From the NCBI GenBank assembly GCA_964431685.1, contig CAYSLA010000005.1:1-50282 (forward strand): 50,282 bases of DNA, given 5' to 3'. Below, in pieces: positions 5,009-50,095 of the stretch. The stretch comes from an uncultured bacterium. Lineage in GTDB: Bacteria > Armatimonadota > UBA5829. Numbering within the stretch: position 1 is the first letter of the stretch; every line of letters begins with the position of its first letter. The translations under genes were made by a program, and so were the position numbers. The notes below the pieces were generated by a model. It had not been told where the DNA came from and did not search any database. It saw only the letters and a list, made by a program, of their open reading frames with translations.

Positions 5009-8000
5009 ATGCGTGTTAGCAGGATACTCTTAGCGTTTGCAGCGGCCGCTGTGGGACTGTCCAGTCTGACTGCGTGCGCCGGCACCGCCTCCCTGACTGC
5101 CGGTGACCTCGGCCTGTCGCTCGACACTGCCAGCGGCCTTGTGCAGAGCACGGCTCTGTCCGGATATGTGTTCGCTGCGGGCATCAGAAAGCATGGTTTC
5201 TTTATAACAGATTTTGCCGCTGGTACGGCGCCGCAACCGGCAGAAGGAACGCTTTCGTATGACGGTGCGGGGCACCTGACCGGCACCCTCAGCACCGCCA
5301 GTTCACAGGTGCAAATAATCCCATCACTGAAAGCCGTTGGCAGTTACATCTCCTGCCGCGCCCGGGTACTGGACACCTCCAGCCCGCACCGCGACCGGGC
5401 CCTGGTAGTGTCTTTCCGGATCCCGCTGCACGCGGGAAGCGGTCTGTGGCAGTGGGACGATGATCTGCGAGCGTCTCGCACCATATTCTTGGAGGGACTG
5501 GGGGCGACCCTGGCAATCAACGGCAATGATGCAGAAGGCGAGAATTGCAGGCTGCTGGCGGGCGAGGTATATGACATAACCGCGTCGGGGTTTCCGCTTG
5601 TGTCTCAGGTGGTCGGACAGACAAGCGGATGGTGGGCTGACGCCGAGTTCGCGGAGTATTGGAGCGCACCGGGCTATCCCGGCGGCAACTTGTTGTATCG
5701 GATGGAGAAACCCTACAACGACTCAACGCTCTGGGACGTCCTCATCGACGGCTCGCCTGTGGACTGGCTGGGAAGCCCGGACGGTCAGACCTGGGCGCCT
5801 CACACTTATTCGCCTGACCATACCTACAAGTATAGCATTACCGGCACAGGCACGCTCGTCAATTTCTCGCGCCTCGATGCGCTACGTGACAACCGGAGCG
5901 GGAATCTGACACTGGATATCGTGCCGGCAAACCCGGAACTGTCCGAAGGCTACCCATACGAGACTACGCAGCTATACGGTTGGGACCCGCCGTACAGCCT
6001 GAACAGATACATATCCAAGTATCCTTTCTCATCAATGAGGTCAGACAACGCGGCAATATCGATGGCGATCCCCTTGTCCGAACCGCGTATCTACAAGTTC
6101 TCGTACGTACCTCTGCGTAATGGCGAAGGTTACCTCGAAGTCTCGTTCGAGATTGGGCTGTCGCCGGACCTCACGAAATCGCCGAACGAAGCAACAGTTG
6201 AGTTTATAATCTATGCCAACGACCCAGCCTGGGGTTTGCGGTCTGCGGCGCGGAACTACTATGACATCTATCCGGAGACCTTCCACAAGTATGCGAGTCG
6301 CGAGGGTATATGGCTGCTCGGACTGGACTGCGGAGCTGTGTCGGAGCCGTGGGACTTCGGCTTCATGTTCGATGAAGCTGCCACAGCGAGCGACGCTGAG
6401 CTGATCTATGACGACATATTCGACATATACGGGTTAAACTACATAGAACTCGGCGGCGTCTGGGCGGCTTTCACGGGCTACGACGACACTCCGAACGCCG
6501 CTTTCCCGTGGGAGGCAGGCGTGGGCTATGAGGAGCTCGAGACACAGTTCCTGTCCTGGCGCTATCAGAACCCTGCATTCTACGATGCGGTTGAGGCCTC
6601 GGCCCTCTGTGACAAGAATGGCAACTGGATATGGTCGCATTGGACGGATCAGTTTTTCTGGGCTGCAAAGGCTTCTCATCTCAAAGCGTCTCTGGACCCG
6701 GACATACCTGGCGGATACGGCTCCTGGCTTATGAACGCTGTGACGTCTACGCTGGAGAGCCTGGATGCAGGGGACGGCAAGACAGGCGGAGTATTCCTGG
6801 ACAGTCTGTCCGCCAGCATATCAGTGCAGTGGGAAGACTACCGTCGAGCGCATTGGGCATATTCCGACGCAGGGCTTACGTTCAGCCACGATACGAAGAC
6901 GCCGGTTTCGCTGCTCGGCGACGGCGAGTGGAAGTTCGTTCGCGACCTGTCGGCCTTCCTGCGAGCACGGGACAAGTTGATATTGGCCAACGTCTATCCA
7001 GTAGGAGACAAGTTCTTTCACCCGTTTCTGGATGCGTTCGGGATAGAGACTTTCGGTGGTACGTGCGGAGGAAGCTTCTGGCCGTATCTCAGGGTCATGG
7101 CCAACCAGAAGCCCGTGAGCTGGCTGGACTACTTCATGCTCTCCGACGACACGGCTCCTGAGTGGTTCAGCAGGGAAAGGGCAATGAATAACTGTCTTGC
7201 CTGGGGAATGTATCCCGGCACCGCCGACTTCATATACAACAATGCCGCAAATATCGAGGAAGCGAGACCAGTCTACAAAGAATGGATGCCCAGGATTCTC
7301 GAGGTGGGCAGCGCCGGGTGGCAGCCGATAACACTAGCCCAAAGCCCGACAGCAAACGTGTGGGTGGAACGGTTCGGCGACTTTGCCACAAACGGCGTGG
7401 TCTACTTCACAGTCTACTCCAATTGGGATTTCACCGGCAGCCAGGGCGAGATCTCCATCGATAGACAGGGGCTCGGAATCCCCGCAGGAGCGACCCTTAT
7501 CACGGAGGAGCTTACAACCGGCGACACGGTCAACTGGACCCAGGAAGACGGCGGGGCGAGAATGAAGACACAGGTAAGCCTGCCCGGGATTATGAGAACC
7601 CGAGCCATAAGGATCGCTACGCCGCAGGGCCTGTCGGGAGTCTGGGCTGCCAGGGGAGGCGAGTTCCTCCGCAGAGTGCACTCTCAGATGAAGTGGTTGA
7701 TCTACCAGGGCGCGCCGCGCGATCTGAAGTCGGCCATCGATTCACTGTTGCCTCAGGTCAAGGCGCTCGTTGAGCAGTGCGACGACGCTCTGGCAGCCAA
7801 CAATAGCAGGCCGCCGGAAGCTACCCTGATCAGTCTCAGAAACTCCGCCGCGGAGATGGTTGTGCTAATCGGACAATTGAGGCAGGATAACGAGTCGAGC
7901 GTGATCTGCCTGCAGCAGTGCCAGGTCGCACTCGAAGCATTTCAGAAAGCCATGGACCTGCTGCACTTCCTGCCGACTACCCCGACCGGCAGCCTGTCGG

Positions 8001-11169: not shown

Positions 11170-11266
11170 ACTACGTCATGCCGGTCCTGAATCAAGTTCA
11201 GGATATCCGGCAACCATCCGGAGAAGGGATGGGCCCTGAAACGAGTTCAGGGTGACGTGGTTTCTC
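11170..11266. repeat. composite palindromic element, copy A (multi-hairpin, closing stem ACGTCA/TGACGT)
   Basis: Shares its flanks and central hairpin with 20843-20925: ACTACGTCATGCCGG...CCGGCA[A/C]CCATCCGGAGAAGGGATGGG...AGTTCAGG[G/A]TGACGTGGTTTCTC. It contains CCTGAATCAAGTTCAGG and CCCTGAAACGAGTTCAGGG. Confidence 0.8.
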
Positions 11267-16270: not shown

Positions 16271-16495
16271 GATGCTTGCCGACCATATCGACGGATTGCT
16301 GGCATATATCAAACACAACATAACCAACTCCTATGCGGAGTCCATAAACGGAATGATTCAACTACTAAAAGCCAATGCACGAGGCTTTCGAAGATTCGAG
16401 AACTTCAGGGTAGCCATACTGTTTAACTACGGCAAACTGCATCTCTACCCACAAGAAATCTCATAGAGCCTCGTTTTTCTTGCTGCCGGGCTGGG
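16266..16495 (+). mobile_element. ISL3-family IS remnant (transposase C-terminal ~65 aa plus probable right end)
   Basis: ORF 16272-16466 reads DHIDGLLAYIKHNITNSYAESINGMIQLLKANARGFRRFENFRVAILFNYGKLHLYP, which matches the ISL3 transposase C-terminal signature. The frame opens immediately after a stop, so the rest of the transposase is absent. Confidence 0.65.
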
Positions 16496-17753: not shown

Positions 17754-20387
17754 CTACTTTCCTTTCGCCTTCTGCTGCAGTTCGTAGAGTTTGTTCATGG
17801 CTTCTATCGGGGACATCACCGAGACGTCCAGCGTTTCCAGCTCGTCCATCACAGGGTCACGCTCCGCCTCGAACAACGAAAGCTGCAGGCGTTCCTGTTT
17901 CACGCTCACTTTCGCGCCTCTCGCCACAGCCTTTCCGCTCGCGCCGTTAGACTCCAGTTCCTTGAGAATATCCTTGGCCCGCTCAATCGCCTCCTGAGGC
18001 AGGCCCGCGAGACGTGCTACCTCAATTCCGTAACTCCTGTCCGTCCCGCCAGGCATGATCTTGCGGAGCCACACGATGCGGTCTTTCTCTTCGCGAACAG
18101 CTATCCGGTAGTTCTTCACTCCCGTAAGCTGCTTTTCCAGTTCATTGAGATGATGATAGTGGGTGGCGAAGAGGGTTCGCGCCTTGAGGCGGTTGATCTG
18201 TTCCGCCACGGCCCACGCGATCGACAGGCCGTCGTATGTGGAAGTGCCTCGGCCAATCTCATCCAGCACGATCAAGCTGCGCATCGTGGCATTGTTGAGT
18301 ATGTTGGCGGTCTCGTTCATCTCCACCATGAAAGTGCTCTGGCCGCTGGCAAGCTCATCGTGCGCGCCGACCCGGGTGAATATGCGGTCCACCACTCCAA
18401 TTACCGCTTCCTCCGCTGGCACAAAAGAACCCATCTGCGCCAGCAGCACAATGAGCGCGACCTGCCGCAGATATGTGGATTTTCCGGCCATGTTGGGACC
18501 GGTTATTATCAGAAGTTGGTCTGTGTCGCAGTCGACGAAGGTGTCGTTTGGAACAAACCTCTCTGCAATGAACTGCTCTACGACCGGATGCCTTCCGTTC
18601 TTGATGCGAAGATCAGCTCCGTCGTTGACTTCCGGTCTCACATATCCACGCGACGCGGCGACTTCCGCCAAAGCGCAAAGCACGTCAACCTCTGCCACCG
18701 CCCTGGCCACTGAGGCAACCGATCGCATCTCGTCAGCCACCTGACTTCGCACCTCGCAGAAAAGAGTGTACTCGAGTTCCTTGGCCTTATCGTCCGCACC
18801 AAGAACCTTGGCCTCCATCTCTTTGAGTTCGGGGGTAATGAAGCGCTCGGCATTGGTGGTGGTCTGTTTGCGTATGTAGTCCTCCGGAACGGCTTCGAGG
18901 TTTGACTTCGTGACCTCAAGATAGTATCCAAACACGGAGTTATAGCCAACCTTGAGGTTCTTGATGCCTGTGCGCTCGCGCTCCTGGGCTTCCAGCCTGG
19001 CAATCCATCCCTTGCCGTCAGTTGAGGCGCTCCTGAGTTCATCCAAATCGGCGCTGTATCCCGGCGCTATGATGCCGCCATCACGGATGGTCAGCGGCGG
19101 CTCCGGCACGATGGAGTGGTCGATAAGCTCGACCAGCGGCTCAAGGAACTCGACTTCGCCCGATAGCGACTGCAGCCGGGGACTCGCTGCCTTGATCAGC
19201 GCACCTTGCAGTGCAGGAAGCTGCTTCAGAGACTCTGCCAGCCCTACCAGGTCGCGCGCGTTCGCGCTCTCCGCGACAATGCGCGCCATGAGCCGCTCGA
19301 GGTCCTGGATGCTTCCGAGCACTTCGCGCAGTTCGCCCCGCAGCAGTGCGTCGTTGTAGAGTTCGGACACCGCGTCCAGACGGCGGTTGATGGCTCCGAC
19401 CTCCAGAAGAGGCTGATCCAGCCACTTGCGCAGCAGTCTGCCGCCCATGGCAGTTCGTGTCTTGTCGATGATGGACAGAAGCGACGCGCCCCTGGTGTCG
19501 GCGCTCATAGAATGCGTCAGCTCCAGATTCCGTCTCGCGGCAGCATCGAGCACCATAAACTCGCTGGTCGAATAGACGCTCATATTCGCGATAGACTGCA
19601 GGGCCCCGGCGTTCGTTTCCTTCAGATAGCCAAGCAGTATTGCCCCAGCCTCCAAGCCGGCGGTCATATCTTCGGCCCCAAAGCCACGAAGCGAGTCAGT
19701 GCCAAACTGGCTGGTGAGAGTCTCCTTGGCAGGGCGGTGGTATATAGCACTTTCTTCGGAGCGAGTCACGGTCGCGCCTGTGGTCTGCTTGATCGGATCA
19801 GCCAGATCCCAGTCGAGTTCACGCAGCAGAACCTCAGCCGGAGCCAATCTTCCGATTTCTTCCAGAAGCCGCCCAGATGCGTCACGCCCGGATACTTCGG
19901 TCACCGCAAACTCGCCGGTGGAGATATCCGCCACCGCAACGCCATAGACCTCGGGCTCGCTGCAGACGGCCACCAGGTAGTTGTTGGATTTGCCGTCCAG
20001 CATGCTGTCTTCGAGCACTGTGCCAGCCGTGACCACACGTGTGACGCCGCGTCTTACTATCTTCTTGGTCTTCTTTGGATCCTCGAGCTGATCGCAAATG
20101 GCGACTCGATAGCCCTTGGAAATCAGACGTGCGACGTAGCGTTCAACGGCATGGTGAGGGAACCCGCACATCGGCACTTCAGCCGCATAGCCTTGAGAGC
20201 GAGAAGTGAGGACAATCTCCAGCTCACGGGAGGCGGTGACAGCATCCTCGCCGAACATCTCGTAGAAATCCCCGAGCCGGAACATCAGGATAACGTCCGG
20301 ATACTGCTCCTTGATCTGCAGATACTGGGCCACCATTGGGGTGACCTTCTTCAAATCCTTGACGTCCTTTATCTCCAAGAGACCCAC
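17754..20387 (-). CDS. mutS: DNA mismatch repair protein MutS
   Basis: 877 aa. N-terminal TPMVAQYLQIKEQYPDVILMFRLGDFYEMF, Walker A GPNMAGKST, and STFMVEM..DEIGRGTSTYDG. Confidence 0.95.
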   Translation of the reverse strand: MGLLEIKDVKDLKKVTPMVAQYLQIKEQYPDVILMFRLGDFYEMFGEDAVTASRELEIVLTSRSQGYAAEVPMCGFPHHAVERYVARLISKGYRVAICDQLEDPKKTKKIVRRGVTRVVTAGTVLEDSMLDGKSNNYLVAVCSEPEVYGVAVADISTGEFAVTEVSGRDASGRLLEEIGRLAPAEVLLRELDWDLADPIKQTTGATVTRSEESAIYHRPAKETLTSQFGTDSLRGFGAEDMTAGLEAGAILLGYLKETNAGALQSIANMSVYSTSEFMVLDAAARRNLELTHSMSADTRGASLLSIIDKTRTAMGGRLLRKWLDQPLLEVGAINRRLDAVSELYNDALLRGELREVLGSIQDLERLMARIVAESANARDLVGLAESLKQLPALQGALIKAASPRLQSLSGEVEFLEPLVELIDHSIVPEPPLTIRDGGIIAPGYSADLDELRSASTDGKGWIARLEAQERERTGIKNLKVGYNSVFGYYLEVTKSNLEAVPEDYIRKQTTTNAERFITPELKEMEAKVLGADDKAKELEYTLFCEVRSQVADEMRSVASVARAVAEVDVLCALAEVAASRGYVRPEVNDGADLRIKNGRHPVVEQFIAERFVPNDTFVDCDTDQLLIITGPNMAGKSTYLRQVALIVLLAQMGSFVPAEEAVIGVVDRIFTRVGAHDELASGQSTFMVEMNETANILNNATMRSLIVLDEIGRGTSTYDGLSIAWAVAEQINRLKARTLFATHYHHLNELEKQLTGVKNYRIAVREEKDRIVWLRKIMPGGTDRSYGIEVARLAGLPQEAIERAKDILKELESNGASGKAVARGAKVSVKQERLQLSLFEAERDPVMDELETLDVSVMSPIEAMNKLYELQQKAKGK

Positions 20388-20842: not shown

Positions 20843-20925
20843 ACTACGTCATGCCGGACTTGATCCGGCACCCATCCGGAGAAGGGATGGGTCCGGCAGC
20901 CAAGTTCAGGATGACGTGGTTTCTC
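20843..20925. repeat. composite palindromic element, copy B (72-nt core 20846-20917)
   Basis: Closing stem ACGTCAT/ATGACGT. Hairpins GCCGGA-cttga-TCCGGC and ACCCATCC-ggagaag-GGATGGGT. Flanks are identical to copy A. Confidence 0.8.
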
Positions 20926-24171: not shown

Positions 24172-24840
24172 CCTTAACCCGATTCAGGACTGATCCCGCC
24201 ACTCGGCATGTGCGGGACAAGTGCCGGTATGGCCTTGTTTCCGGCAGAAGTGAGGAATCTGCCCTTTGAATCCTCGGCACGCTCAGCAGATTCCTCCGTT
24301 CCATCGCAATGATGCGTGCGACGAGCGTTAGTCGCCTGACTGCCCCGCGTTTTTCAGCGGCACGCTCATGTCGGTACTGGTGACCTCATTGTCACCATCA
24401 GTATCGCCGTTTAAGAGCAGCGTGTCAAGAGTGACGGACTGACCTGCCCAGACGACCACACCGGGGAACACCCGTCTCAGGAATCCGGAAGCGCTCACCT
24501 CGACGTCGTACACACCGGGGTCGAGGTTAAGAAACGCGTAGCCGCCAGGGTTCTGGGCAAGAGTAACGCTCTGGCTGGCAACGGTCACACCCTGCTGCTT
24601 CAGGTCGATAGAGACCGGAAGCAAATCCAAACTCCCAATGAAGCCCTCGAGAGTTATAGACCCTCCCAGGGAGCTTATGTCGCCGCCGTATCTGATGCCG
24701 CTTGAGAGCCTCAGCTCGTCCATACTGCCGAGCAGGTTGTACCAGTTGTGCCCGTCTTGTCTCCCGGCCACCGTCGCGGGGCCGAGCACAGGATCCGGCG
24801 TGCCCATGCTAGTAACATCCTGCGCAAAGACCTGAACTCC

Positions 24841-24864
24841 CCCTGAATCAAGTTCAGGGCAAGA
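24841..24864. repeat. 24-nt palindromic unit R1 (CCCTGAATCAAGTTCAGGGCAAGA)
   Basis: Exact 20-nt core. It lies between LamG segments ...GGRNII and GVQVFAQD, where the paralogs have KFWKN. The frame is not preserved here. Confidence 0.9.
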
Positions 24865-25134
24865 TAATGTTCCGCCCGCCGGACTCTGCGTCCCTCTGCC
24901 ACGTCACCGCGGCGTGAGTCCAGGTGTTCAAGTCCCAGTCGGTTGACGGATCCATAACAGACTGCCAACCGCCCTTGGCATACCAGCCAACCGACATGCG
25001 CATCCGGCCGCCGGTGTAGACCAGCGACCAACTGTAGTCAGCGCCGGTATAGTTCTGCAGGAGCACCCAGTAGCTATTCTCCAAAGTCGGATATAGCCAC
25101 GCTTCGGCAGTAAGGCTGTCTATTCCAAACCCAA

Positions 25135-25154
25135 CCCTGAATCAAGTTCAGGGC
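25135..25154. repeat. palindromic unit R2 (20-nt core)
   Basis: Exact core CCCTGAATCAAGTTCAGGGC. Removing 22 nt (25133-25154) joins YKKV to GFGIDSLTAEAW in frame. Confidence 0.9.
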
Positions 25155-25177
25155 GACTTTCTTGTAGACGCCGCTCT

Positions 25178-25201
25178 CCCTGAATCAAGTTCAGGGCAAG
25201 C
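25178..25201. repeat. 24-nt palindromic unit R3
   Basis: CCCTGAATCAAGTTCAGGGCAAGC. A clean 24-nt insertion within LamG coding sequence. Confidence 0.95.
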
Positions 25202-25219
25202 TATAGTTAACTTGCAGAG

Positions 25220-25243
25220 CCCTGAATCAAGTTCAGGGCAAGC
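25220..25243. repeat. 24-nt palindromic unit R4
   Basis: Identical to R3 and separated from it by 18 nt (6 codons, LQVNY region). Confidence 0.95.
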
Positions 25244-25322
25244 TGTTGCCGAAGCTGGTCTGTCCGGCGATGTAGTGATTGGGCTGGGCGGCTAGACCAG
25301 TGTTGAGCGTCCCATGCACGTC

Positions 25323-25342
25323 CCCTGAATCAAGTTCAGGGC
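25323..25342. repeat. palindromic unit R5 (20-nt core) at a gene-fragment junction
   Basis: Exact core with a tail (TCGA) that differs from the consensus. It supplies the TGA stop of ORF 25336-27774 and directly abuts the truncated LamG fragment. Confidence 0.9.
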
Positions 25343-27774
25343 TCGATTCCGTCGCGCAGAAGCACCATCCGAAGACTGGGGACGATGTTCATGTTCTTCT
25401 CCGGAAGGTCGGTGCCCCCTGAATCAAGTTCAGGGCAAGCTCTGGGATCGGGCGGGTAGAAGTAGGCGAGAGTGCCGTTCCCATATTGTCCGCCTGGATT
25501 AACCCAGGGATTCTGGAAGACTACGTACTCATTCTCCTGCCACCATATCGCTATCGCCCAGGTGGACATACCCTTCGCGCCCATCCACCACACCTTCGGC
25601 GCCATAAGCCGCTGGTCGATGGAAGGAGCGTCTATGAACTGATGGATGGTTTGTGTGTAGTAGGTCCAGACCTCTTTGCCGGCCGGGTACGCAGCAATGG
25701 CCGCCGGCGAAGCGATGTTGAGCGCATCGTTATTCTCTGGTATGAGAATATCAACGTGGTTGCGAAGAGCATCATAGGCCTCGGCGTTGTAGACGTAGGC
25801 ACCCATCTTCACGTCCTTAGCGTGCGGCTGCAGACGGAATGCGTCTATGAAGTTACGGACTCCCTGATACGCGTAGGGCTGCGGTTCGTCAATCTGAACA
25901 AACGCGTTATCAAGCCAGCCTTTGGCCGCCAAGTGAGCAGCAAGCGGCTCGTAGTAGCTGGTCACATATGGCGTCGCGCTCTCCACTGTGGTGTCTGCGA
26001 GAAGAGGGCCGGACTCGTGGCCGATTGAGTGAGTACTCAAGTTCAGTTCATCCAAAACACGGGAGTACTCCACGTCGTATTCTGCGGGGAACGCCGGGAG
26101 CGTGCCTGTGTACCACACGTAAGGAATCAAAGGATTGGTCTCGGCTATCTTGTAGCGAGCCATCTCGGAGACATAATCTCTCGTCAGGCTGTATTTGTCC
26201 ACGCGCTCAGTGACCTTGTGGAACGGAAAAACCTCGGCGCTGGCATATCTGGACATCTGGAAGGATGTCTTGCAGCTCGGCCGCTCCGGCAGAACGAAAT
26301 TCCACACCTTGAGTTCAACCGGCACATTGACCACGCCGGCTGACGTATGCAGGTTCACCTGGCCGTTGTAGGTTCCCGCAGGCATCTGCCTGGGAATGGT
26401 CACGTCTACCCAGATAATGATATTGGGATCACCCGCGTCGAACGACACCGGGGCAAATTTCACCAAAGGATCCGGCAGGTTACCGGTGAATGCGGAGCGT
26501 ATCGGTTCGGTCAGGAACTGGCCCGTCTTCGACGGAGTGTGAATAGGCACATAGCAGGCGCGGCGAATATCGAAATTCCTCTGTGGAACGGTTACGCCGC
26601 CGGGACCAGTAAGACTCGCGCTGACTGAGGTAATCGCTCCCGCCGAGGTTGGGCGGAAGACCAGTTGCAGCGCCTCCGACTCATTACGCGCACATGAGAT
26701 AGAGACCTTGGTACGGTTGGCGCTCGGTGCCTGAGCATTCTCCAGAACCTTTTTTGTGGTGGACGTATACCAAAGACTGCCCAGGCTGCCCGATGGCAGC
26801 GAGTATGATATGTCTTCCTCAACCCATTCGGTGGCTGCAAGCTTGGTAACGTTCAGCGTCTGAGACGGAAGGGAAGATGCCTGCTGACTCGGAACGTGCG
26901 GTGTTATCCCTTCCAGCGGAGAGTAGTACAGGTCATAATACTTTGTGCCACTCGAGGCTGCGTTCAGGACGAACCCCACCTGGCACTCGCGCAAAGAGAT
27001 ATCGTCAGCGGCGGACCCCAGTATACGCTCAAACCGCACTTGCAGTTTGTCATTGATCCAACCCGCTTTGTCCCACGTGTTGAAGTAGTACTCGCGTGAA
27101 TACCATCCGGTTGCAGGTATGTACGGATCGCTGTAGGTGTGCGATACGGGCTGCCACCATAGGTCGTTGACGTTGGAATACGCAGCGGACGAGCCAGACC
27201 CCTTCGCCCAATGGGAGTACCGATACCACGTGTTGGGGTTAACGGTGACATACTGCCAACAGGCGGACCGATCCTGGGCGGTGCCCTGCACAGTCATACA
27301 CCAACTGCCGTCGTGTGAGTTCTGCTGCAAGACAAACGATGCCGGCTGGTCTATGTTCCATCCCACCGGCACGCCGCCGGACTGCTGCTCGAAGTTGCCG
27401 TTCACTACCAGTTCCTGAGTTCCCACCACGATCTTGTAGGCCGCGGACACATTGTCGCTGATCAGGTTGCCGCCCGCGTCGACCTCAACGAGTTTCACGT
27501 TGTCATAAGAGAAGTACTCGTGCTGGAACTTGAACTCGGCCTTCTCATTTAGCCAACTGGTGATCGTCTGAGGCGTCAGATTGAGCGCATACGAACCGGC
27601 TGACGGCACGCTCACAGATATGCGAACTCTGAACGGGTAGTAACTGTCCGTCCAGGGAGCCGCATATACTCCCAAAGCACCAATCACCAGAATGACCGTG
27701 ACGGCCAGAATGCAGAAAAACGATTGCCTGGTTCTGCCAAGGATAGTCTTAGACATATTGTTGTCCATCATCAT
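25336..27774 (-). CDS. DUF4091-like putative glycoside hydrolase (GH123-like), N-terminal membrane anchor; C-terminus truncated
   Basis: 812 aa. Motifs ARNESEALQLVFRP, ELKVWNFVLPE, GNGTLAYFYP...PSLRMVLLRDGIE. The usual continuation (DYE...; compare SIRWEVWAESLQDYAILQ in 48494-50095) is missing, and the ORF stops inside R5. Confidence 0.75.
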   Translation of the reverse strand: MMMDNNMSKTILGRTRQSFFCILAVTVILVIGALGVYAAPWTDSYYPFRVRISVSVPSAGSYALNLTPQTITSWLNEKAEFKFQHEYFSYDNVKLVEVDAGGNLISDNVSAAYKIVVGTQELVVNGNFEQQSGGVPVGWNIDQPASFVLQQNSHDGSWCMTVQGTAQDRSACWQYVTVNPNTWYRYSHWAKGSGSSAAYSNVNDLWWQPVSHTYSDPYIPATGWYSREYYFNTWDKAGWINDKLQVRFERILGSAADDISLRECQVGFVLNAASSGTKYYDLYYSPLEGITPHVPSQQASSLPSQTLNVTKLAATEWVEEDISYSLPSGSLGSLWYTSTTKKVLENAQAPSANRTKVSISCARNESEALQLVFRPTSAGAITSVSASLTGPGGVTVPQRNFDIRRACYVPIHTPSKTGQFLTEPIRSAFTGNLPDPLVKFAPVSFDAGDPNIIIWVDVTIPRQMPAGTYNGQVNLHTSAGVVNVPVELKVWNFVLPERPSCKTSFQMSRYASAEVFPFHKVTERVDKYSLTRDYVSEMARYKIAETNPLIPYVWYTGTLPAFPAEYDVEYSRVLDELNLSTHSIGHESGPLLADTTVESATPYVTSYYEPLAAHLAAKGWLDNAFVQIDEPQPYAYQGVRNFIDAFRLQPHAKDVKMGAYVYNAEAYDALRNHVDILIPENNDALNIASPAAIAAYPAGKEVWTYYTQTIHQFIDAPSIDQRLMAPKVWWMGAKGMSTWAIAIWWQENEYVVFQNPWVNPGGQYGNGTLAYFYPPDPRACPELDSGGTDLPEKNMNIVPSLRMVLLRDGIEP
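25417..25440. repeat. 24-nt palindromic unit R6, in phase inside the DUF4091-like ORF
   Basis: Identical 24-mer. On the minus strand it occupies exactly 8 codons (GCT TGC CCT GAA CTT GAT TCA GGG = ACPELDSG). Confidence 0.95.
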
Positions 27775-27898: not shown

Positions 27899-28843
27899 CT
27901 ACTGACCGATCTCGTCAATGTTCGGGATAATAGTCCCTACATCGGCAGCATCAATGGTGTTGTCACCGTTCACATCACCGTTAGTGAGCGAGAAGTTGGC
28001 AGAAGCGGTCTGCCCGATCTCGACCACCACTCCGGAAGCTTTCTGCCGAAGGAATCGGCCCGCGTTGGCGTAGACGTCGTAGGTTCCCGGTTCAAGCTTG
28101 TTGAAACTGTATGAACCCGGATTGCTGGACACGGTCACCGTCTGCGTGGCAACCGTATTGGCCCCCTGTTTGAGCTCAACCTTGACCGGGACCGGCGCGA
28201 AGCTCGCACTGACGTCCTGAAGCGTAATCTGCCCAGCGATGTTGCCCACGGGCACTCCGTATCTGAGGACATTGGACATCCTGAACTCATCGATCTGGCC
28301 GAGGAAGTTGTACCAGGGATGACCGTCTACCCATCTACCGCCCACACTGGCAGGGCCGCCAATTGGCGCCGCCAGACCAAGCAGCGTAACATCCTGCTCG
28401 AAGACCATAACGCCGTTCTTCCAGAACTTGATGATGTTAGCTCCGCCGGTGTCTGACCTCTTCTGATAGGTAACAGCAGCATGCTGCCAGGGCGCGCTCG
28501 GCCCCGCCTCCCACTCAGTCACGTCATCTTGTACCAGTTGCCAGTTCCCGCTGGCATACCAGCCAAAACCCATGCGCATCTTGCCGGCAACATAGGTGAA
28601 GCTCCACTGGTAGTTGCCGCCAGTGTAGTTCTGGATCATAACCCAGTAGCTGTTCGCCTCGTAGGGCTTAATCCAGCACTCAATCGTCAGATCGTCGGTA
28701 TAGGAACCAAGAAGGGCGTTAGCGGGCAGGTCAATCTTCTTATACCCTCCATCGTAGACAATCTTCAGGGCATTTCCAAAACCCGCTTTGTCACTGGCAA
28801 CGTAGTGGTCTGCCTGTATCGCCTTCAGCCACAGTGATACCTG
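27899..28843 (-). pseudogene. LamG / CarboxypepD_reg / dockerin-like paralog lacking start, signal peptide and N-terminal ~55 aa
   Basis: The stop-to-stop frame is open from 28843. Homology begins at QADHYVASDKAGFGNALKIVYDGGYKKIDLP (~28816). The first Met in the track (28639) lies inside the LamG domain. Confidence 0.75.
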
Positions 28844-29879
28844 TTACCACCTGCTTCAGGAACCCTGGCGCGGATATCGCCACGTCATACGTTCCGGCCT
28901 CCATATTGCCGAAGCTGAATATTCCAGGGTTGCTCGTGAAAGTCACGGTCTGAGTCTGGAGCACCGTGGCGCCCTGCTTCAGCTCTACCGTCACCGGGAC
29001 GAGCGTAAGGTCTCCGACGTATCCCTGCAGTGTAACTGTGCCGCCAATAGATATCTCCTGGGTTCCGTACCTCAGTACATCTGAGAGCCTGAACTCATCG
29101 ATCTGGCCCAGCACGTTGTAGTAAGGATGGCCGTCCATCCTCCCACCAAGTGTGGCGGGGCCGTTGACCGCGGTCGGTTCGCCAGTATCCGGATCGGGTC
29201 CTCCTTCGCTGAACCCCCAACCAGTGACATCCTGCCGCAGGACTTGCTCGCCGTTCTTCCAGAACTTTACTATGTCACGCCCGCCAGTGTCGGATCTTCT
29301 CTGAACAGTTACAGCGGCGTGATTCCAGACACCGATTTCCCAGTCCGTCGAACTGTCGGTGACGTCCTTCCATCCGCCAAAGCCGTACCAGCCCAGATAC
29401 ATGCGCATCTTCCCAGCATCGTACAACATACCCCAGTTGTAGTCGCCGCCGGTATAGTTCACGAAGATGACCCAGTACGTGTTGGGCTCGACCGGGCGAA
29501 TCCACGCCTCCATCGTAAAGTCGCTCGGCCCCATCCAGAACTTCACATTGTCCGGATAGGGCACTTCAGGGAAACCTACATTCTTGTAGATGAACCCGGT
29601 ATAGTGAATGCGCAGAGCGTTGCCAAAACCGGCCTTGTCACTCACAACGTGGTGATCGACCTGTCCGGCCAACCCCGTATTGAGCGTTCCATTTACGGGG
29701 TTAGGAGCAGAATCAATAACTGTCGTGGACGTCAGGTCTTCGTCAAAATGAAGCAGTAGCCGAGTGTTCGCGTCCGCGTCGAACGGCTGGGTCCAGTCGG
29801 TGTAGTTCTGTGCGCACAGCGGCGCGCAAAGCGCTACAAACACAGCAAGAGAAAGCCACACCAATTGTCTTCTCAACAT
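28791..29879 (-). pseudogene. LamG / CarboxypepD_reg paralog lacking its C-terminal dockerin-like end
   Basis: RBS GGAAGGAGA, then ATG 29879 (MLRRQLVWLSLAVFVALCAPLCAQ signal peptide). The ORF ends ...GFLKQVVTGITVAEGDTGRPLRCQ*, where the paralogs continue about 35 aa to the NGDxDGDN motif. Confidence 0.7.
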
Positions 29880-30133
29880 TACATGTCTCCTTCCACGAAA
29901 TAATCGAATGACTCGACGGTCACTCGTCAGGTTTTGCCCGGAACGCCGCTGCATACCGCCAGGCGCATGCCGGGCCAGATCAGACTACAACTGTACTGGC
30001 TGCCACACCTCCCCCCAAGAATGTATCGTGCAGCACTGCACCAATCACCCAAGTCCTGCCAGGCCGGATCCGATTGGCATCACAAGGCCCTACGGGTCCG
30101 ACCCGCTCTTCTGTGTCGCGTAATACTACTGTT

Positions 30134-35171: not shown

Positions 35172-37046
35172 TTAGATATTGGCCTTGACCTCGTCGCCAA
35201 ACCCTATATATCGCTTCTCGCGAACGTCATAGATGTGGCCACTGGTGTCCAGCTTGAGGGTGCAGTCAAGTCCCTGGCCTTTCTGCATGCGTGATTCCTG
35301 GGGCACATAGTAACTGGTGCGGAATGACTCTTGGACCAGCGGGTAGTACACGACGTTGTCCGACCCCACAAACTTGCCTATCCGATAGTACGGCGCACTC
35401 TTCTCAGGATAGTACGGTGTGGTAATTGTCACGGCCCGCAGGGGGTAGTCCTCGCCCAGTGCCTTTCGGAAGACCTCGCGGTACGCACGCGCCATCGACT
35501 CCCTGCCTGCCATCGGATCGTGGTAAGGTCCCGGCAGCGGATCGGGCAGATAGACTTTGTAGTTGCTCAGATATGAGTTGACGAACACTGCGCGCCCGGC
35601 TCCGTGTTTCTTTGAGGTGACCAGGGGCAGAGCATCCGTAAATGTGCTGATCACTTCCGCCTGAACTGGCTCGTCATAGCAGGTCACGTAGTTGACCTTC
35701 TCCAGCAGATAGGGCCAGTCAAAGCCTATGGCTCCGGCGTATCTGGTACCCTCAATGCCAAACCTGAACTTGCTGTCCCGCTCCTGAAGGGACTCGAGTG
35801 TAGCGCCGTGAATATCCGCGAACAGCTTGTCCATATAAAGGCGGTACTCCAGCCACGGCGCAAAGGTGTAGATCTCGTCGCCGTCTCCGGCTCTCAGATC
35901 GTCCTTGCTTATCTCGCCGGCAACGCCTCCGCCGCCCACCTCCACGTCGGAGCGTGCCAATGTCTCACTTATGTTGCCCAGCTCAGCCGGTTGGGTTTCA
36001 CCGAATGACTTGTAGGACGTTCCCCAGCTCCTGTTGAACCGCGAGAGGTCGCCCGCATACGACTGCTCCATCCACTTTCGGAAGGCCTCGATGTTCTTTG
36101 GCGCGTATGACATCCAGCTCTGCTGCTCGTCGCCGGACAGGTATGTATCTACCCCCCACTTCTTGGCCACGTCCGCGTTCCGGTTCACGTGCCACACGTA
36201 TTGGGAAACGAACGCGTCGTCTCCAAGCACCATCCGGCTTTCATCGGCCGGCCTCCAGAGTCGATTATCCTCGGCTCTCGCAAGGTATGAGAGAACTCCA
36301 GCGGAGTACTGGAAGATCGGCCTGATACCGTGCACGGCCAACGTGCCAAAGAAGTCATCCAAGACCCCATCCCACTCCTCGTCAGACAGCTTCTGGGACG
36401 CATAGTAGTTTGCGTACGCCGTACTCCCCACAACGCCCACATCTCTCTGAGTCTTGAGCGCGTGCAGTGCCCAGGGCCTGTTGAACTGGAATGGCGCTTC
36501 GCCCCACACGTCGAAGACGAACTCCTCAACTTTGTGGTCGAAATCGTCCAGTCCGCAGGCCACCGGTTTCTTGACCACGTCGACGATCTTCCCGGCGTTC
36601 TTGAGAGTCACCGACAAGAAGACCCCACTGCTCTTCGCATCTGAAGTGTCCATATTGAATCGCGCTTTGCCGCCGTCGACACGCCTGGAGTCGGACCAGA
36701 TAAGACGATCGTAACCGTCGTGGACTTCAGCCTGCAAGGTGTCTCCGGCGGAGGCCGAGTCGAGAACCACATCAAACGTTCCTCCGGCCTTGGGGTAGCC
36801 TGACTTTGCTGTCTGAACTTCCTTGATTCCCGGCCGTGTGCCTTCGACTGGGACGACACAGAAGTCCAACGTCCTGCCATACATGTCCTTGAGCCATAGA
36901 TTTGCGAGGTTTTCGCCCTTCCTGACAACCGAAAACGCCTCCGCCAGCGGCACGCGGACTGCGCCTGCTCCGTCCGTATTCACGGCGAAAGCCGCGCTTG
37001 AGCAGAGCTCATAGTTCTTATCTCTGAGTTCGCTCACCAGCGTCAT
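35172..37046 (-). CDS. GH42-like family protein, middle segment of a split paralog
   Basis: 624 aa. FRKWMEQSYAGDLSRFNRSWGTSYKSF. Colinear with residues ~430-1090 of the 1208-aa protein. Confidence 0.65.
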   Translation of the reverse strand: MTLVSELRDKNYELCSSAAFAVNTDGAGAVRVPLAEAFSVVRKGENLANLWLKDMYGRTLDFCVVPVEGTRPGIKEVQTAKSGYPKAGGTFDVVLDSASAGDTLQAEVHDGYDRLIWSDSRRVDGGKARFNMDTSDAKSSGVFLSVTLKNAGKIVDVVKKPVACGLDDFDHKVEEFVFDVWGEAPFQFNRPWALHALKTQRDVGVVGSTAYANYYASQKLSDEEWDGVLDDFFGTLAVHGIRPIFQYSAGVLSYLARAEDNRLWRPADESRMVLGDDAFVSQYVWHVNRNADVAKKWGVDTYLSGDEQQSWMSYAPKNIEAFRKWMEQSYAGDLSRFNRSWGTSYKSFGETQPAELGNISETLARSDVEVGGGGVAGEISKDDLRAGDGDEIYTFAPWLEYRLYMDKLFADIHGATLESLQERDSKFRFGIEGTRYAGAIGFDWPYLLEKVNYVTCYDEPVQAEVISTFTDALPLVTSKKHGAGRAVFVNSYLSNYKVYLPDPLPGPYHDPMAGRESMARAYREVFRKALGEDYPLRAVTITTPYYPEKSAPYYRIGKFVGSDNVVYYPLVQESFRTSYYVPQESRMQKGQGLDCTLKLDTSGHIYDVREKRYIGFGDEVKANI

Positions 37047-37082
37047 GCTGAACTCGATTCAGCACCCAGACGTTCCCTTCTC
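37041..37082. repeat. partial copy of the composite palindromic element, at an ORF boundary
   Basis: CGTCATGCTGAACTCGATTCAGCACCCAgacgtTCCCTTCTC. Compare the reverse complement of element A, CGTCACCCTGAACTCGTTTCAGGGCCCATCCCTTCTC. It contains the palindrome GCTGAA-ctcga-TTCAGC (37047-37063). Confidence 0.7.
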
Positions 37083-43657: not shown

Positions 43658-45007
43658 TTAGTGGTTGTCGATCTCGCCAACAAACCCGTAGAGGTGGGAC
43701 TGCGTTGCTCGGACACGTACGAACTGCCCAGCAGTAGCTACGGAGCCTGGAAAGTTCGCAGTCTTGTTCTGACGCGTAAGACCGGTCAGACGGCCATCGT
43801 GTTTGGGGCTGATTCCCTCAACCAGAACCTCATAAGTGCGGCCGACCTGAGAGGCGTTGATCAGGCTGGTGATCTCGTTTTGTAGCTCGATGAGTCTGTT
43901 GAGGCGCGCCATCTTGACGCGCTCCGTCAGATGCCCGTCCATCGCGGCGGCGGCGGTACGGGGAATGGGGTTGAACGAGAACATGAAAGCCGAGTCGAAT
44001 CTGACATCCTCGACAAGCCTCAATGTGTTCTCGAACTGCTCCTGGGTCTCTCCGGGAAACCCCACAAGCAGATCAGTAGTAATCGCGATATCCGGCATAG
44101 CGGAGCGCAGAGCGGCGACCCTCTCGCGGAACACTGCGGAGGTGTACTTCCTGTTCATACGCGCCAACACCTCATCGTCTCCCGACTGCACCGCAAGGTG
44201 AATGTGCTCGCACACCTTTGGCAGCTCAGCCATCGCTTCTATGAGTCGATCTGACAAGTCCTTTGGATGGCTGGTAGTGAATCTGATGCGTTCGATCCCG
44301 GCAACCTCGCTTACCTTGCGCAGTAGATCAGCGAAATCGGTGCTTATCCCCAAGGTCGCTCCGTAGGAGTTCACGTTCTGGCCGAGCAAGGTTATCTCCT
44401 TCCGGCCCAATGCCGCAAGTTGAGTTGCCTCCTCCACGATTTCGTCCAGCGGCCGGCTGCGCTCCCGCCCGCGCACATAGGGCACGACGCAATACGCGCA
44501 GTAGTTGTCACATCCGTACATTGCGGGAAGAAAGCTCTTGAGCGCAGTCCCCTGACGGTCTACTCTCTGTGGCAGGGACCGTGCGGCGTCGCCGGGTTGC
44601 TCCGGCATATCCAGAGCGGCCGCAAATGAACGCCGCTCTTCAATGCGGCGAATGATGTCCGGAATCTGGTGAATGGCCGCGGTTCCCACCACGAAGTCCA
44701 GGTACGGCCGGCCCTTACGGAGCGCGCTGCCTTCGCGCTGGGCCATGCACCCGCACACACCGATTATCATCCATGGACGCTGCTCTTTGAGTATTCTCAG
44801 TTCACCCAGCTTGCTCTTCGCCTTCTGCTCCGGCTTTGCCCGCACGCTACAGGTCACCAGTACAGCTATGTCAGCCTCATTTGCTTCTTGGGTCGGGGCA
44901 AGACCCATCTGCATAAGAAGACTCGAGATCTGCTCTGAGTCGTCCTCGTTCATCTGGCAGCCCCAAGTGTAAATGATAAATCGGTTCACGGTTACGCGCA
45001 CTCTCAT
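43658..45007 (-). CDS. miaB: tRNA-2-methylthio-N6-dimethylallyladenosine synthase MiaB
   Basis: 449 aa. UPF0004 N-domain (IYTWGCQMN), radical-SAM CDNYCAYC, and a TRAM C-terminus. Confidence 0.9.
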   Translation of the reverse strand: MRVRVTVNRFIIYTWGCQMNEDDSEQISSLLMQMGLAPTQEANEADIAVLVTCSVRAKPEQKAKSKLGELRILKEQRPWMIIGVCGCMAQREGSALRKGRPYLDFVVGTAAIHQIPDIIRRIEERRSFAAALDMPEQPGDAARSLPQRVDRQGTALKSFLPAMYGCDNYCAYCVVPYVRGRERSRPLDEIVEEATQLAALGRKEITLLGQNVNSYGATLGISTDFADLLRKVSEVAGIERIRFTTSHPKDLSDRLIEAMAELPKVCEHIHLAVQSGDDEVLARMNRKYTSAVFRERVAALRSAMPDIAITTDLLVGFPGETQEQFENTLRLVEDVRFDSAFMFSFNPIPRTAAAAMDGHLTERVKMARLNRLIELQNEITSLINASQVGRTYEVLVEGISPKHDGRLTGLTRQNKTANFPGSVATAGQFVRVRATQSHLYGFVGEIDNH

Positions 45008-48493: not shown

Positions 48494-50095
48494 TCAGCCC
48501 AGCAGCACTGACTCCCGAAGTTCCGTGATCCATTCCTCATTCTTCGGGAAGTCGTTGTAGTCGCGGATCGCGGCAAGCCTTGGATCATCCGGGTCTATGC
48601 CTGCGGTCTGCAGAATGGCATAGTCCTGAAGCGATTCGGCCCACACCTCCCAGCGTATGCTCGGCAGAGGTCCGTTCTCGCCAGGGTAGACCACATACGG
48701 ATCGCCATGCGCCAAGCCGGGCCAGGCATCGCCGCAATCCTGGGTAAATGGATCTGTCATCTGCTGTGTCTGAAACTTATGCCAGTAGTTGTAACCCCAG
48801 TGCAGGAACCCTTGCGCCTTCAACCTGTAGAAGATCCACCCGGCCATTCTGATCTTGGCAAGCGGTGTGTCGATCAGCCTGTTGAGGTACGGGCCTCGAG
48901 GCCCGCAGCAGAAATAAACCCAGCTCTCGATTCCAGCGTCCAGATACTCTCTGGCGGAGCTGGTGACTGGGATGGGGATGTCCGTCAGGCCCTCTTTGCC
49001 ATATCGGATATCACTCATCGCGTCAGCAACCCTCATCCACGGCGCAAGCTCCTTGAGCAGTGAGCGGGCTGCGCGGTAGTTTGCCAGGTGATCGTCGCCG
49101 TGCGGTTCGTCTGATACGTGAAAGAGCGATTTGCCCAGCAGGTCTTCGGCCACAAGGAACTTGTGAAACTCCGGCAGGAACTGGGCCAGGAAGTTTCGAT
49201 AGATATCGGAAGTGGCACCTGTCTCGAACGGCCACAGCAGCGAGTCGGGGTCCGAGTTGGACCGGTATATCCGAAGCGCCTTCTCGACTCCCCACTGCCA
49301 GAAGAAATGCGTCCACTCAAACATCTGAGCGCCGCAGCTTGTCGCGAGATCGGTCCACCGCTTGACCAGTGTGAAGTCAAACTCATACTTTCCCTGTGAA
49401 ACCTCGCGCACGCCAATGAGCTGGTGCGGACGCTTGACTCCGTCGGTGGGAGGTGTAAAGATGGGCACGTACTGGCAGTCGCCGCCATGCTCGACCAAGT
49501 CTCGCATGTATGGCTCGACTATCGTCCAGAAGCGCTCCTCGTATGGGTCCACTCTGTACCAGTCGCAGATGGCGTCGGCGTAGAACCAGTGCGTAACCGG
49601 GAAACCTCTGCGCGGCTGAAGCACGAGCTGGGCAGCCCTAACAGTGGCCTGCATCTCCGGAAGAAAGTCATCACCCGCCTTGAACTTGACGGTTATCGCC
49701 TGCTCACCCACCGGGCAGTCGCCGGGCACGAACACTTCCACCCAAAAGGAGTGGCTTTCGTATGGGCCAATCTGAACCTGGCAATCCGAAAAAAGAGGAT
49801 CAGGGGCCGGGCCTGGGATTCGGCCTATGCCGTCGAGTTCTTCAGCTTCAGTCTCAGTATTCAGGTGCTTGACGAATACATACCCAACGCGTCTGGCGCG
49901 AACGCTGACGTCTTCCGAACACTCGACTTCCACGGAGACGTCGACAGCCGCCGTAGTTTCGTTGCGCACGCAGGCCTGGAACGAGACCTTGCCTCCACGG
50001 GCAGAGACTAGACTGATCCGTTGAACATCCTCGGACGCGGTTGCGGGAAAAACGCGGCTCAGCGAAGACTGGAGCCAGCACGAAGGACCATTCAT
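48494..50095 (-). CDS. DUF4091 domain protein (GH123-like putative glycoside hydrolase)
   Basis: 533 aa. ARGGKVSFQACVRN, LVLQPRRGFPVTHWFY, GDPYVVYPGENGPLPSIRWEVWAESLQDYAIL. Confidence 0.7.
   Translation of the reverse strand: MNGPSCWLQSSLSRVFPATASEDVQRISLVSARGGKVSFQACVRNETTAAVDVSVEVECSEDVSVRARRVGYVFVKHLNTETEAEELDGIGRIPGPAPDPLFSDCQVQIGPYESHSFWVEVFVPGDCPVGEQAITVKFKAGDDFLPEMQATVRAAQLVLQPRRGFPVTHWFYADAICDWYRVDPYEERFWTIVEPYMRDLVEHGGDCQYVPIFTPPTDGVKRPHQLIGVREVSQGKYEFDFTLVKRWTDLATSCGAQMFEWTHFFWQWGVEKALRIYRSNSDPDSLLWPFETGATSDIYRNFLAQFLPEFHKFLVAEDLLGKSLFHVSDEPHGDDHLANYRAARSLLKELAPWMRVADAMSDIRYGKEGLTDIPIPVTSSAREYLDAGIESWVYFCCGPRGPYLNRLIDTPLAKIRMAGWIFYRLKAQGFLHWGYNYWHKFQTQQMTDPFTQDCGDAWPGLAHGDPYVVYPGENGPLPSIRWEVWAESLQDYAILQTAGIDPDDPRLAAIRDYNDFPKNEEWITELRESVLLG

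Follow-up and report, generated by a model that had tools for sequence, protein, structure and literature searches.

A local cluster of 24-nt hairpin repeats, probably derived from CGTC-tagged REPs, in a GH123 gene and an adjoining LamG gene of an uncultured Armatimonadota bacterium

Introduction

The Rickettsia palindromic element RPE-1, which Ogata and colleagues reportedly described in 2000, is said to measure ~100–150 bp (30–50 aa), to occur in Rickettsia only and to leave its host genes intact. Translational bypass elements, among them T4 gene 60 and the Magnusiomyces mitochondrial byps, are likewise short hairpin-forming inserts in open reading frames (ORFs), some of them with a stop codon at the start of the hairpin. 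Here we describe a 24-nt hairpin repeat in a stretch of 50,282 nt from an uncultured bacterium (GTDB lineage Bacteria; Armatimonadota; UBA5829), corresponding to positions 1 to 50,282 of the forward strand of contig CAYSLA010000005.1 in assembly GCA_964431685.1. This whole stretch is referred to below as the window. An initial annotation, made from the sequence alone, had singled out one copy of the repeat, R6, as an in-phase insert of eight codons in an otherwise open gene of the glycoside hydrolase family 123 (GH123) type, and had likened it to the palindromic elements of Rickettsia.

Two further systems are closer in size and structure. CGTC-tagged REPs are characterized by a CGTC or TGTC tag, a 4–5-nt loop and a CCA tail; they occur in at least 5 phyla and include Neisseria dRS3 as well as RPE-4 and RPE-6 of Rickettsia conorii, in-frame intragenic copies are documented, and no dedicated transposase emerged from the survey (Di Nocera et al. 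2013, PMC3733652). Ssn, a single-domain GIY-YIG nuclease of ~94 aa, binds NTS and SRM hairpins as single-stranded DNA (ssDNA) and cleaves them a few nt upstream; its gene is typically flanked by hairpins in the arrangement SRM-ssn-SRM, and NTS are reported to be rarely intragenic, at 2% (Chenal et al. 2025, PMC11893778). Comparing the locus with these systems, we arrive at the reading, to which we give a probability of about 0.7, that R6 and five sister copies represent an untagged 24-nt derivative of a pan-bacterial CGTC-REP/SRM hairpin, and that these copies are recent, local insertions at the DNA level into a rearranging accessory gene array.

Results

R6 as an eight-codon insertion in a GH123-type gene

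On the minus strand, R6 (25440..25417) reads GCT TGC CCT GAA CTT GAT TCA GGG, which corresponds to codons 779–786 (ACPELDSG) of an 812-aa ORF for a GH123-type (DUF4091) glycoside hydrolase. The insert lies between the residues ...YFYPPDPR and GTDLPEKNMNIVPSLR, and re-reading the sequence returned exactly the coordinates, codons and flanks given in the initial annotation. The tryptic peptide of the 812-aa product that covers the R6-encoded residues is ACPELDSGGTDLPEK.

In a multiple alignment with 16 homologs of 39–53% identity, drawn from Pirellulales, Verrucomicrobia and other metagenome-assembled genomes (MAGs), every homolog (16 of 16) reads YFYPPxPx-GxxLxxKD, with zero residues at the R6 site. 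Because this position is empty in all of them, R6 is, on the evidence of the alignment, a clean, lineage-specific insertion of eight codons, or 24 nt. That the eight residues would prove specific to this lineage had been anticipated, and it is borne out by this comparison. The comparison first offered in its support, with the DUF4091 paralog at 48494–50095, carries less weight: the paralog does contain PYVVYPGENGPLPS, but it is only ~25% identical and gives no BLASTP alignment at the site, and the real evidence for the insertion comes from the closer homologs.

R6 stands in a stop-free phase (PELDSG), and reading of the local frame agrees with the earlier statement that it can be translated. 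When the 812-aa ORF was modelled with AlphaFold2 from an alignment of the 16 homologs, the mean predicted local distance difference test score (pLDDT) was 85 and the predicted TM-score (pTM) 0.82. The top PDB matches of the model in a Foldseek comparison were the GH123-type beta-N-acetylgalactosaminidases 8k2f, 8k2j and 5l7r; in a sequence-only PDB search, matches stopped short of the insert region. Residues 779–785 of the model have pLDDT values below 50 and no secondary structure. Such a coil is compatible with the surface loop that had been proposed, but low confidence is to be expected there and is partly built in, because these residues are absent from the alignment. If the ORF is expressed, R6 would be translated as an eight-residue coil insert.

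The description of this ORF as otherwise open is accurate for R6 itself, through which the frame reads, and no other lesion lies inside the 812 codons. It does not extend to the 3′ end of the gene. A second copy of the repeat, R5, lies 94 nt downstream of R6 in the same ORF and truncates it, with the stop codon, TGA (25336–25338), lying within R5. All of the homologs run ~70 residues beyond RDGIED (YEYAxxLExL...AIExL), with nearly invariant Y, W, W and R columns, and these conserved C-terminal residues are gone from the window ORF. Nearly the whole Pfam catalytic domain is retained, the GH123_cat match ending at residue 805, position 318 of 324 in the profile. Judged from its sequence, the enzyme may retain its core and have lost just the family-specific C-terminal extension. 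The product is most likely a C-terminally truncated GH123 protein with an eight-residue coil insert, which for the enzyme itself is an ordinary result.

Six identical cores within 600 nt

The 19-nt core of the repeat, CCCTGAATCAAGTTCAGGG, has six exact copies in the window, R1 to R6, all on the + strand and each beginning at the lower coordinate given for its unit in Table 1, where strands are those of the host genes. The expected number of core matches in shuffled sequence is 0, and the chance that six copies fall within 600 nt of the 50 kb window is ~1.5e-9. The core forms a perfect hairpin, CCCTGAA-TCAAG-TTCAGGG, with a folding energy of ~-9 to -10 kcal/mol as RNA. On the gene-sense strand the 24-nt unit reads AGCTTG-CCCTGAA-CTTGA-TTCAGG(G), with a 7-bp stem and a 5-nt loop. 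A 25-nt block, C+CCTGAATCAAGTTCAGGGCAAGCT, is common to R3, R4 and R6, although each adds a net 24 nt. Successive units are separated by 275, 24, 23, 84 and 75 nt, and these spacers are consecutive stretches of LamG coding sequence.

The copies differ in their effect on the local reading frame. R6 is open (PELDSG) and R2 is open (LNLIQ) yet frame-shifting; R1, R3, R4 and R5 are read as P(stop)T(stop)FR, with two stops. Among the five siblings of R6 within the 600 nt, four thus stand in the stop phase and three shift the frame. As read off the sequence, four of the six phases of the core contain no stop, and an open phase would be expected by chance in two of the three phases per orientation.

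Table 1. Coordinates of the repeat units, host genes, tagged hairpins and hairpin-flanked nuclease genes
Feature	Position	Strand	Description
R1	24841..24863	-	core + CAAG(AT); frameshift, stop phase; takes the place of the KFWKN motif found in both paralogs
R2	25135..25156	-	core followed by CGA(C); net length congruent to 1 mod 3, hence frameshift; gene C is 7–12 residues short of its paralogs here
R3	25178..25202	-	complete unit in LamG gene C; read LP(stop)T(stop)FR
R4	25220..25244	-	complete unit in LamG gene C; read LP(stop)T(stop)FR; 24-nt net insert fits FGN-A-LQVNY against FGNALRIHY of the paralog
R5	25323..25341	-	19-nt core alone, without AGCTTG; joint between truncated GH123 (...RDGIE) and N-terminally truncated LamG gene C (DVHGTLNTG...)
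R6	25417..25441	-	complete unit; 25-nt block common to R3 and R4; net insert 24 nt; codes ACPELDSG
GH123-type (DUF4091) ORF, 812 aa	25336..27774	-	carries R6, terminates in R5, lacks the ~70-aa C-terminal extension of the 16 homologs
Gene C remnant (Laminin_G_3 + CarboxypepD_reg + dockerin-like tail)	24328..25322	-	lacks ~85 N-terminal residues; broken by R1–R4
Tagged CGTC-type REP, CGTCATGCCGG...TCCGGCA	11174..11215	+	intergenic; second hairpin TCCTGAATCAAGTTCAGGA nested in loop (intact counterpart: 20847–20874)
Canonical CGTCA-CCCTGAA-CTCGT-TTCAGGG-CCCA	11230..11257	-	intergenic
Canonical CGTCA-TGCCGGA-CTTGA-TCCGGCA-CCCA	20847..20874	+	intergenic (MutS / MFS)
Canonical CGTCA-TGCTGAA-CTCGA-TTCAGCA-CCCA	37041..37068	+	intergenic
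GIY-YIG loci in other genomes	L104 (6643-7133; gene 6788-7069, cores 6643 and 7115); L030 (18-743); L065; L033; L091; L005		19-mer on one or both sides

The cluster is not peculiar to one assembly: 3601 nt containing all six units are 100% identical in JGI 3300022556, JGI 3300025145, ENA ERZ27245470 and Logan SRR5214704. The independent ENA contig (L003, k141_779417) ends right after R5, as though the assembler had broken at the repeat cluster. Rfam scans of the cluster, both at gathering thresholds and in a permissive mode, returned zero matches, and a literature search with the repeat DNA strings and the repeat-encoded peptides found nothing relevant.

The adjoining LamG gene and the missing sequence

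Beyond R5, the minus-strand coding signal runs on in other frames through R4, R3, R2 and R1 to a 159-aa ORF (24328..24807). This region belongs to gene C, a LamG gene that is 46–47% identical to two upstream paralogs, A (28791..29954) and B (27899..28639), and that starts at the equivalent of residue 87 of paralog A. Since the C-terminus of the GH123 protein and the N-terminus of gene C are both missing at R5, this unit lies at a deletion or fusion joint and is not a simple insertion. In a three-way alignment of the paralogs the R4 and R3 sites each hold a single residue (FGN-A-LRIHY in A, FGN-A-LQVNY in C), which fits 24-nt inserts. The same alignment shows that the KFWKN of A and B is lost at R1 and that there is a shortfall of 7–12 residues at R2. 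When 19 nt were removed in silico at R1, R2 and R5, and 24 nt at R3, R4 and R6, the result was one open frame of 1105 codons, in which Pfam finds GH123_cat, Laminin_G_3 and CarboxypepD_reg. Gene C is dead as it stands. A word-index search for an intact ortholog of it gave one weak match only, and this search missed even the paralogs in the window.

The boundary between A and B, at 28640–28830 on the minus strand, is itself a fusion joint. Paralog A ends without ~35 C-terminal residues; the coding sequence of B runs upstream of its ATG to ~28800 in a frame that differs from that of A, with ~95 N-terminal residues missing. This second joint suggests that the gene array is rearranging in general.

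Relation to the CGTC-tagged REP and Ssn-related hairpins

By its sequence, the 19-nt core belongs to the CGTC-tagged REP / Ssn-related hairpin family. Four tagged members are scattered in intergenic spacers of the window (Table 1), and within the window the 24-nt unit is seen only in the one cluster of 600 nt. Two diverged copies of the core, at 11185 and 11234, are also found in the window, the first of them nested within the loop of a CGTC-type REP. The unit is likewise nested in the loops of other REPs at two loci elsewhere, L124 and L168.

We compared the in-gene units with the features of the family one by one. A recurrent loop of 4–5 nt is present, namely CTTGA. A CGTC, TGTC or CCTC tag is not; in its place stand AGCTTG (R3, R4, R6), TCTTG (R1), AGTCG (R2) or TCGAG (R5). 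The stem is 7 bp (CCCTGAA/TTCAGGG) with a G·C base, where the family has 8–9 bp starting from A·T pairs. There is no conserved CCA 3′ tail, and the intergenic copies of the window end in CCCA. When held against the Rickettsia elements, which are inserted in frame and leave the host ORF intact, R6 alone fits; R1–R5 bring stops or frameshifts, and R5 truncates the host ORF.

A census of the exact 19-mer over GTDB species representatives gave at least 119 loci in more than 10 phyla, including Treponema, Sulfurimonas, Flavobacteriia, Pedobacter, Melainabacteria, Nitrospirota, Rhodospirillales, Patescibacteria, Dehalococcoidia, Armatimonadota and Pseudoalteromonas. Isolates are among them (Pseudoalteromonas citrea DSM 8771, Mesonia mobilis DSM 19841 and Pedobacter). 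The family counts that follow come from the matches listed. Of 134 copies of the core, 96 are set in the context GA-core-TGAC, equivalent on the opposite strand to (C/T)GTCA-CCCTGAA-CTTGA-TTCAGGG-TC(T/C), and GTCA has C or T before it in 139 of 155 hairpins. These features agree with the CGTC/TGTC tag, the loop and the CCA tail by which CGTC-tagged REPs are defined (PMC3733652). CTTGA is the dominant loop (128 of 257 foreign family hairpins, with CTTGT in 25), and a partner hairpin with different stem bases but the same loop is often close by. Foreign tagged copies have an 8-bp stem, ACCCTGAA/TTCAGGGT. At five loci (L120, L011, L040, L070 and L072), a 3′ half-site, TTCAGGG(T/C)GAC, follows the hairpin and is repeated 2–3 times at ~21-nt intervals. 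In a viral collection the 19-mer had 4 matches, so that phage contigs are no notable reservoir.

Clustering of the ORFs near the 19-mer in these 119 loci revealed an association with GIY-YIG genes. At 6 of the at least 119 loci, a gene for a single-domain GIY-YIG protein of ~90 aa (PF01541, E-values 1e-14 to 5e-18) is directly flanked by the exact 19-mer, the same layout as the published SRM-ssn-SRM. The genomes concerned include Flavobacteriia, Elusimicrobium, Neomarinimicrobiota and others.

Copies of the hairpin inside genes elsewhere

Inside open spans of at least 200 codons we found 15 of the 134 genome copies listed, and untagged copies are enriched in such long ORFs (10 of 38, versus 5 of 96 for tagged copies). 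In-gene copies add 9 residues (SPESSSGQP) to HisF of a Dehalococcoidia MAG, relative to solved HisF, and 10 residues to GlnRS of a Candidatus Nitrotoga MAG, relative to E. coli GlnRS. CarB has an identical insert in four samples. Further copies lie in LeuRS of Saccharimonadales, as a composite with other family hairpins, and in a GlnE-like protein, YggS-like proteins and PBP2. Three diverged C-terminal sorting domains of the type IX secretion system (T9SS; L132, L145 and L146) have the hairpin-encoded residues LNQVQGK at one shared site, which suggests an old, inherited and translated insert. In-frame survival of the exact 19-mer hairpin within genes is therefore recurrent and supports the analogy with Rickettsia palindromic elements as a general phenomenon.

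Two other sets of loci deserve mention here. Dehalococcoidia bacterium CG2_30_46_9 has five exact cores on four contigs (L098 3140-3937 and 3657-5468; L012, L026 and L027), several of which are in frame (in HisF, in a GltB-like protein and, in two cases, near N-termini). At the low-GC loci L154 (YggS-like), L133, L135 and L164, AAGATTCAAGAT-like direct repeats lie on both sides of the hairpin and encode a peptide of the form KIQD...KIQD; these repeats represent either a target duplication of ~12 nt or a longer composite element.

A metagenome scan with the core followed by CAAG returned 48 loci with G+C contents of 0.37–0.63, many with the same CAAGCT extension. In the sample of one of the window assemblies there was just one other unit-bearing contig (L163), and the unit is intergenic there. 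In another metagenome, contig Ga0136653_10092594 (1–1464; L142) carries four single units of 24/25 nt and, at the contig end, a head-to-tail triple, all within ~600 nt. The triple tandem array confirms the 24-nt period. Periodicity of G+C at third codon positions (GC3) indicates a coding region in frames 0, 1, 1 and 0 across the units, which have the same orientation relative to the sense strand as those in the window. By this signal L142 is a second riddled coding region; its reconstructed protein has zero Pfam domains, and its coding status rests on GC3 periodicity. At ~640–770 of the same contig there is a canonical hairpin with a CCCA tail, together with a 21-nt tandem repeat in five copies (gtcatccctcacatctctgcc).

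Gene neighbourhood

The glycan-utilisation genes of the window encode a heparinase II/III-like protein, GH32, GH42, two GH123-type proteins and LamG proteins. A ~23 kb stretch of glycan-utilisation genes (20400–43650), riddled genes included, separates mutS (17754–20387), whose product is ~80% identical to proteins of Armatimonadota MAGs, from a miaB-like radical-SAM gene (43658–45007). In two relatives with ~80% identical MutS (L176 and L178), miaB adjoins mutS. The loci of these relatives, which are not syntenic with the window, have no family hairpins in 22 kb. The stretch 20400–43650 is probably an accessory island. Elsewhere in the window, a 64-aa ORF at ~16275–16469 (+) has a DDE_Tnp_ISL3 match in a precomputed gene table (L001 21306-21500) and is probably a transposase remnant. 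The sole Rfam match in the window at gathering threshold is a tRNA gene at 9–81 (-).

Discussion

Our results are best read as follows, with the probability given in the Introduction. Copies of the unit would have been inserted as DNA, all in one orientation, into the 3′ end of the GH123 gene and the adjoining LamG gene. R3, R4 and R6 would be clean 24-nt insertions. R1, R2 and R5, which are without the AGCTTG end, would coincide with loss of target DNA on that same side, and R5 in particular would mark a deletion of ~0.6 kb by which what is left of the GH123 gene became joined to what is left of the LamG gene, with R5 providing the stop of the former. Such one-sided deletions could have arisen if the hairpin was cleaved or unstable on its 5′ side, where Ssn nucleases cut; that the two sides match may be coincidence. 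The units may have spread by template switching from one hairpin to another close by, or an Ssn-like enzyme acting on ssDNA may have mobilised and cleaved them. That the cores are all alike in sequence and the genes free of other lesions argues that the insertions are recent, and from the clustering, the single orientation and the parallel in L142 we infer multiplication in cis. The locus gives no sign of a selective filter, since siblings in stop phase and siblings that shift the frame persist, and R5 ends the very ORF in which R6 lies. Taken together, the region looks like a recent burst of insertion in a rearranging, probably decaying, gene array.

Several observations weigh against this reading. 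The in-gene units are without the features that define the family, that is, the CGTC tag, the A·T stem base and the CCA tail, and the published SRM pattern HGTCWYN(0-2)YYVSBRHN(0-5)WNVSBRGN(0-2)RNCYNB, which matches an NTS control, matches neither tagged nor untagged copies of the A/T-richer subfamily with CTGAA stem and CTTGA loop. No ssn, RAYT or other candidate mobilising gene is present in the window, and a tblastn search of the window gave no ssn homolog. The joint between A and B is a similar fusion without a hairpin, so that deletions at this locus need no element. No empty-site allele or close ortholog was found; the exact bounds of the inserts and the deletions proposed at R1 and R2 consequently depend on paralogs of ~46% identity, and the R2 loop is variable in length. 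The reading has no explanation for the local clustering of the copies. Finally, as far as its sequence goes, the GH123 ORF may still function.

The initial annotation took R6 to be a selectively tolerated decoration of a functional enzyme, akin to the Rickettsia elements and kept thanks to a permissive phase and a position in a surface loop. We regard this as possible but unlikely. The insert is in frame, free of stops, lineage-specific and predicted to be coil, GH123_cat is kept to 318 of 324 positions in an ORF with no other lesion, and the same hairpin lies in frame in housekeeping genes elsewhere, including the three diverged T9SS-domain orthologs that share one site. The likeness to Rickettsia elements is apt at the level of class. 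Persistence by way of a tolerated frame and loop is not supported, as R5, 94 nt downstream, truncates the same ORF and removes ~70 conserved residues, and copies in stop or frameshift phases (four and three of the five siblings, respectively) persist whether tolerated or not. In addition, cores that are all identical leave too little time for selection, and the low pLDDT of the insert is partly a consequence of how the model was constructed. A purely replicative origin is a similarly tentative alternative: the hairpin would stall the fork, the nascent strand would copy a neighbouring unit by way of microhomology, and rejoining out of register would produce the deletions, with no trans-acting enzyme involved. 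Extreme clustering in one orientation, boundaries that vary (19, 22, 24 and possibly 25 nt) with deletions beside three units, the existence of tandem arrays with a 24-nt period, and the finding of only one further copy of core plus CAAG in the same sample all agree with template switching. It is harder to reconcile with junctions that have no clear microhomology past a single C/G, and the presence of the same 25-nt block in many unrelated organisms and genes means that the first copy must have come by another route. We also considered, as a more doubtful proposal, that the untagged unit (C+CCTGAATCAAGTTCAGGGCAAGCT) is a distinct and still active nano-element descended from Ssn-type hairpins, which would multiply in cis on ssDNA, form tandem arrays, nest in REP loops and cause one-sided deletions through cleavage at its 5′ side. 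If that were true, hairpin-driven erosion and remodelling of genes would extend across phyla, and the rare in-frame survivors would be the extra loops seen in HisF, GlnRS, CarB, LeuRS and others.

The remaining explanations fare considerably worse. The gene that has the 19-bp repeats at its 3′ end encodes a secreted glycan-binding protein, R5 lies at a deletion joint, and the repeats might serve as sites of a site-specific recombinase that remodels the C-terminus of the protein, in the manner of a shufflon or of programmed deletion; this is very improbable, in that all copies are direct and not inverted, most of them bring stops or frameshifts, no recombinase gene is found in the 50 kb, and in many phyla this sequence occurs as a repeat scattered between genes. 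Removal or bypass of the units during expression, by translational bypassing or RNA excision, would make the 1105-codon gene functional. Removing the units does restore a perfect open frame with no other lesion, the hairpins are stable, and several have a stop right at the hairpin start, but this idea is largely refuted and we give it very little credence: no single removal rule applies, since the length to be taken out changes from site to site (19, 22 or 24 nt); there is no matching pair of take-off and landing codons; R5 joins fragments that are non-contiguous in any homolog, and ~70 aa are lost from GH123 and ~85 aa from gene C; the conserved KFWKN is replaced at R1; and Rfam gave no match in the cluster. 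Short, palindromic, identical copies in metagenome-derived sequence, with one ENA contig that breaks after R5, could also point to an artefact of the assembly or the library, for example an adapter or chimeric hairpin. Identical structure in four assemblies from different pipelines and at least two samples, and the occurrence of the same hairpin in isolate genomes, make an artefact scarcely credible.

There is no settled account of how hairpins of the CGTC-REP, NTS and SRM types spread, and the question of a biological role outside Neisseria is left open in the 2025 Ssn paper. With six identical copies, clean 24-nt bounds, one orientation, relatives in tandem arrays and one-sided deletions, the locus offers a concrete substrate for testing mobilisation. 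There is also a consequence for annotation: gene callers will give truncated or split proteins at such loci, and PELDSG, LNLIQG, PESSSG and LNQVQG, which recur in metagenomic proteins, are repeat-encoded peptides, not functional motifs.

Among the described systems, CGTC-tagged REPs share with this repeat a short stem-loop with a 5-nt loop, a high copy number across phyla and a mostly intergenic location between co-directional genes, and the intergenic copies in the window bear the CGTC(A) tag and the CCA tail. In contrast, the six units of the cluster are packed within 600 nt in direct orientation and are mostly frame-disrupting, and tandem arrays of 24 nt exist. Ssn/SRM hairpins have the same architecture (CGTCA, a palindrome and a C-containing tail), the 19-mer flanks GIY-YIG genes elsewhere, and Ssn cuts ssDNA a few nt 5′ of the tag, on the side where R1, R2 and R5 have lost sequence; however, the upstream nucleotides reported as critical for cleavage are missing from the in-gene units. 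RPE-1 is also a palindromic repeat in frame in protein-coding genes, with extra residues thought to lie in surface loops, whereas here the unit is 24 nt long, belongs to a family found in many phyla, and could be translated in only one of its six local copies. The GTAG-tagged REPs of REPIN/RAYT systems resemble it as non-autonomous hairpin repeats that are thought to move as ssDNA, form clusters (BIMEs) and are targets for other elements, but the units described here have no GTAG tag, no inverted doublets and no RAYT nearby, and REPINs are lineage-specific, unlike a core that is identical across phyla. Translational bypass elements differ in having matching take-off and landing codons and a uniform length, and in the present case coding sequence is missing at three of the six sites. 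The unit is not a miniature inverted-repeat transposable element, being a single hairpin without terminal inverted repeats, and R3, R4 and R6 have no flanking direct repeats of the kind left by target site duplication; nor is the cluster a CRISPR array, given its irregular spacing and spacers that consist of LamG coding sequence. Intragenic hairpins of the REP/RPE type are thus a known phenomenon, and it is the tagless, 24-nt, clustered and deletion-associated form that is unusual.

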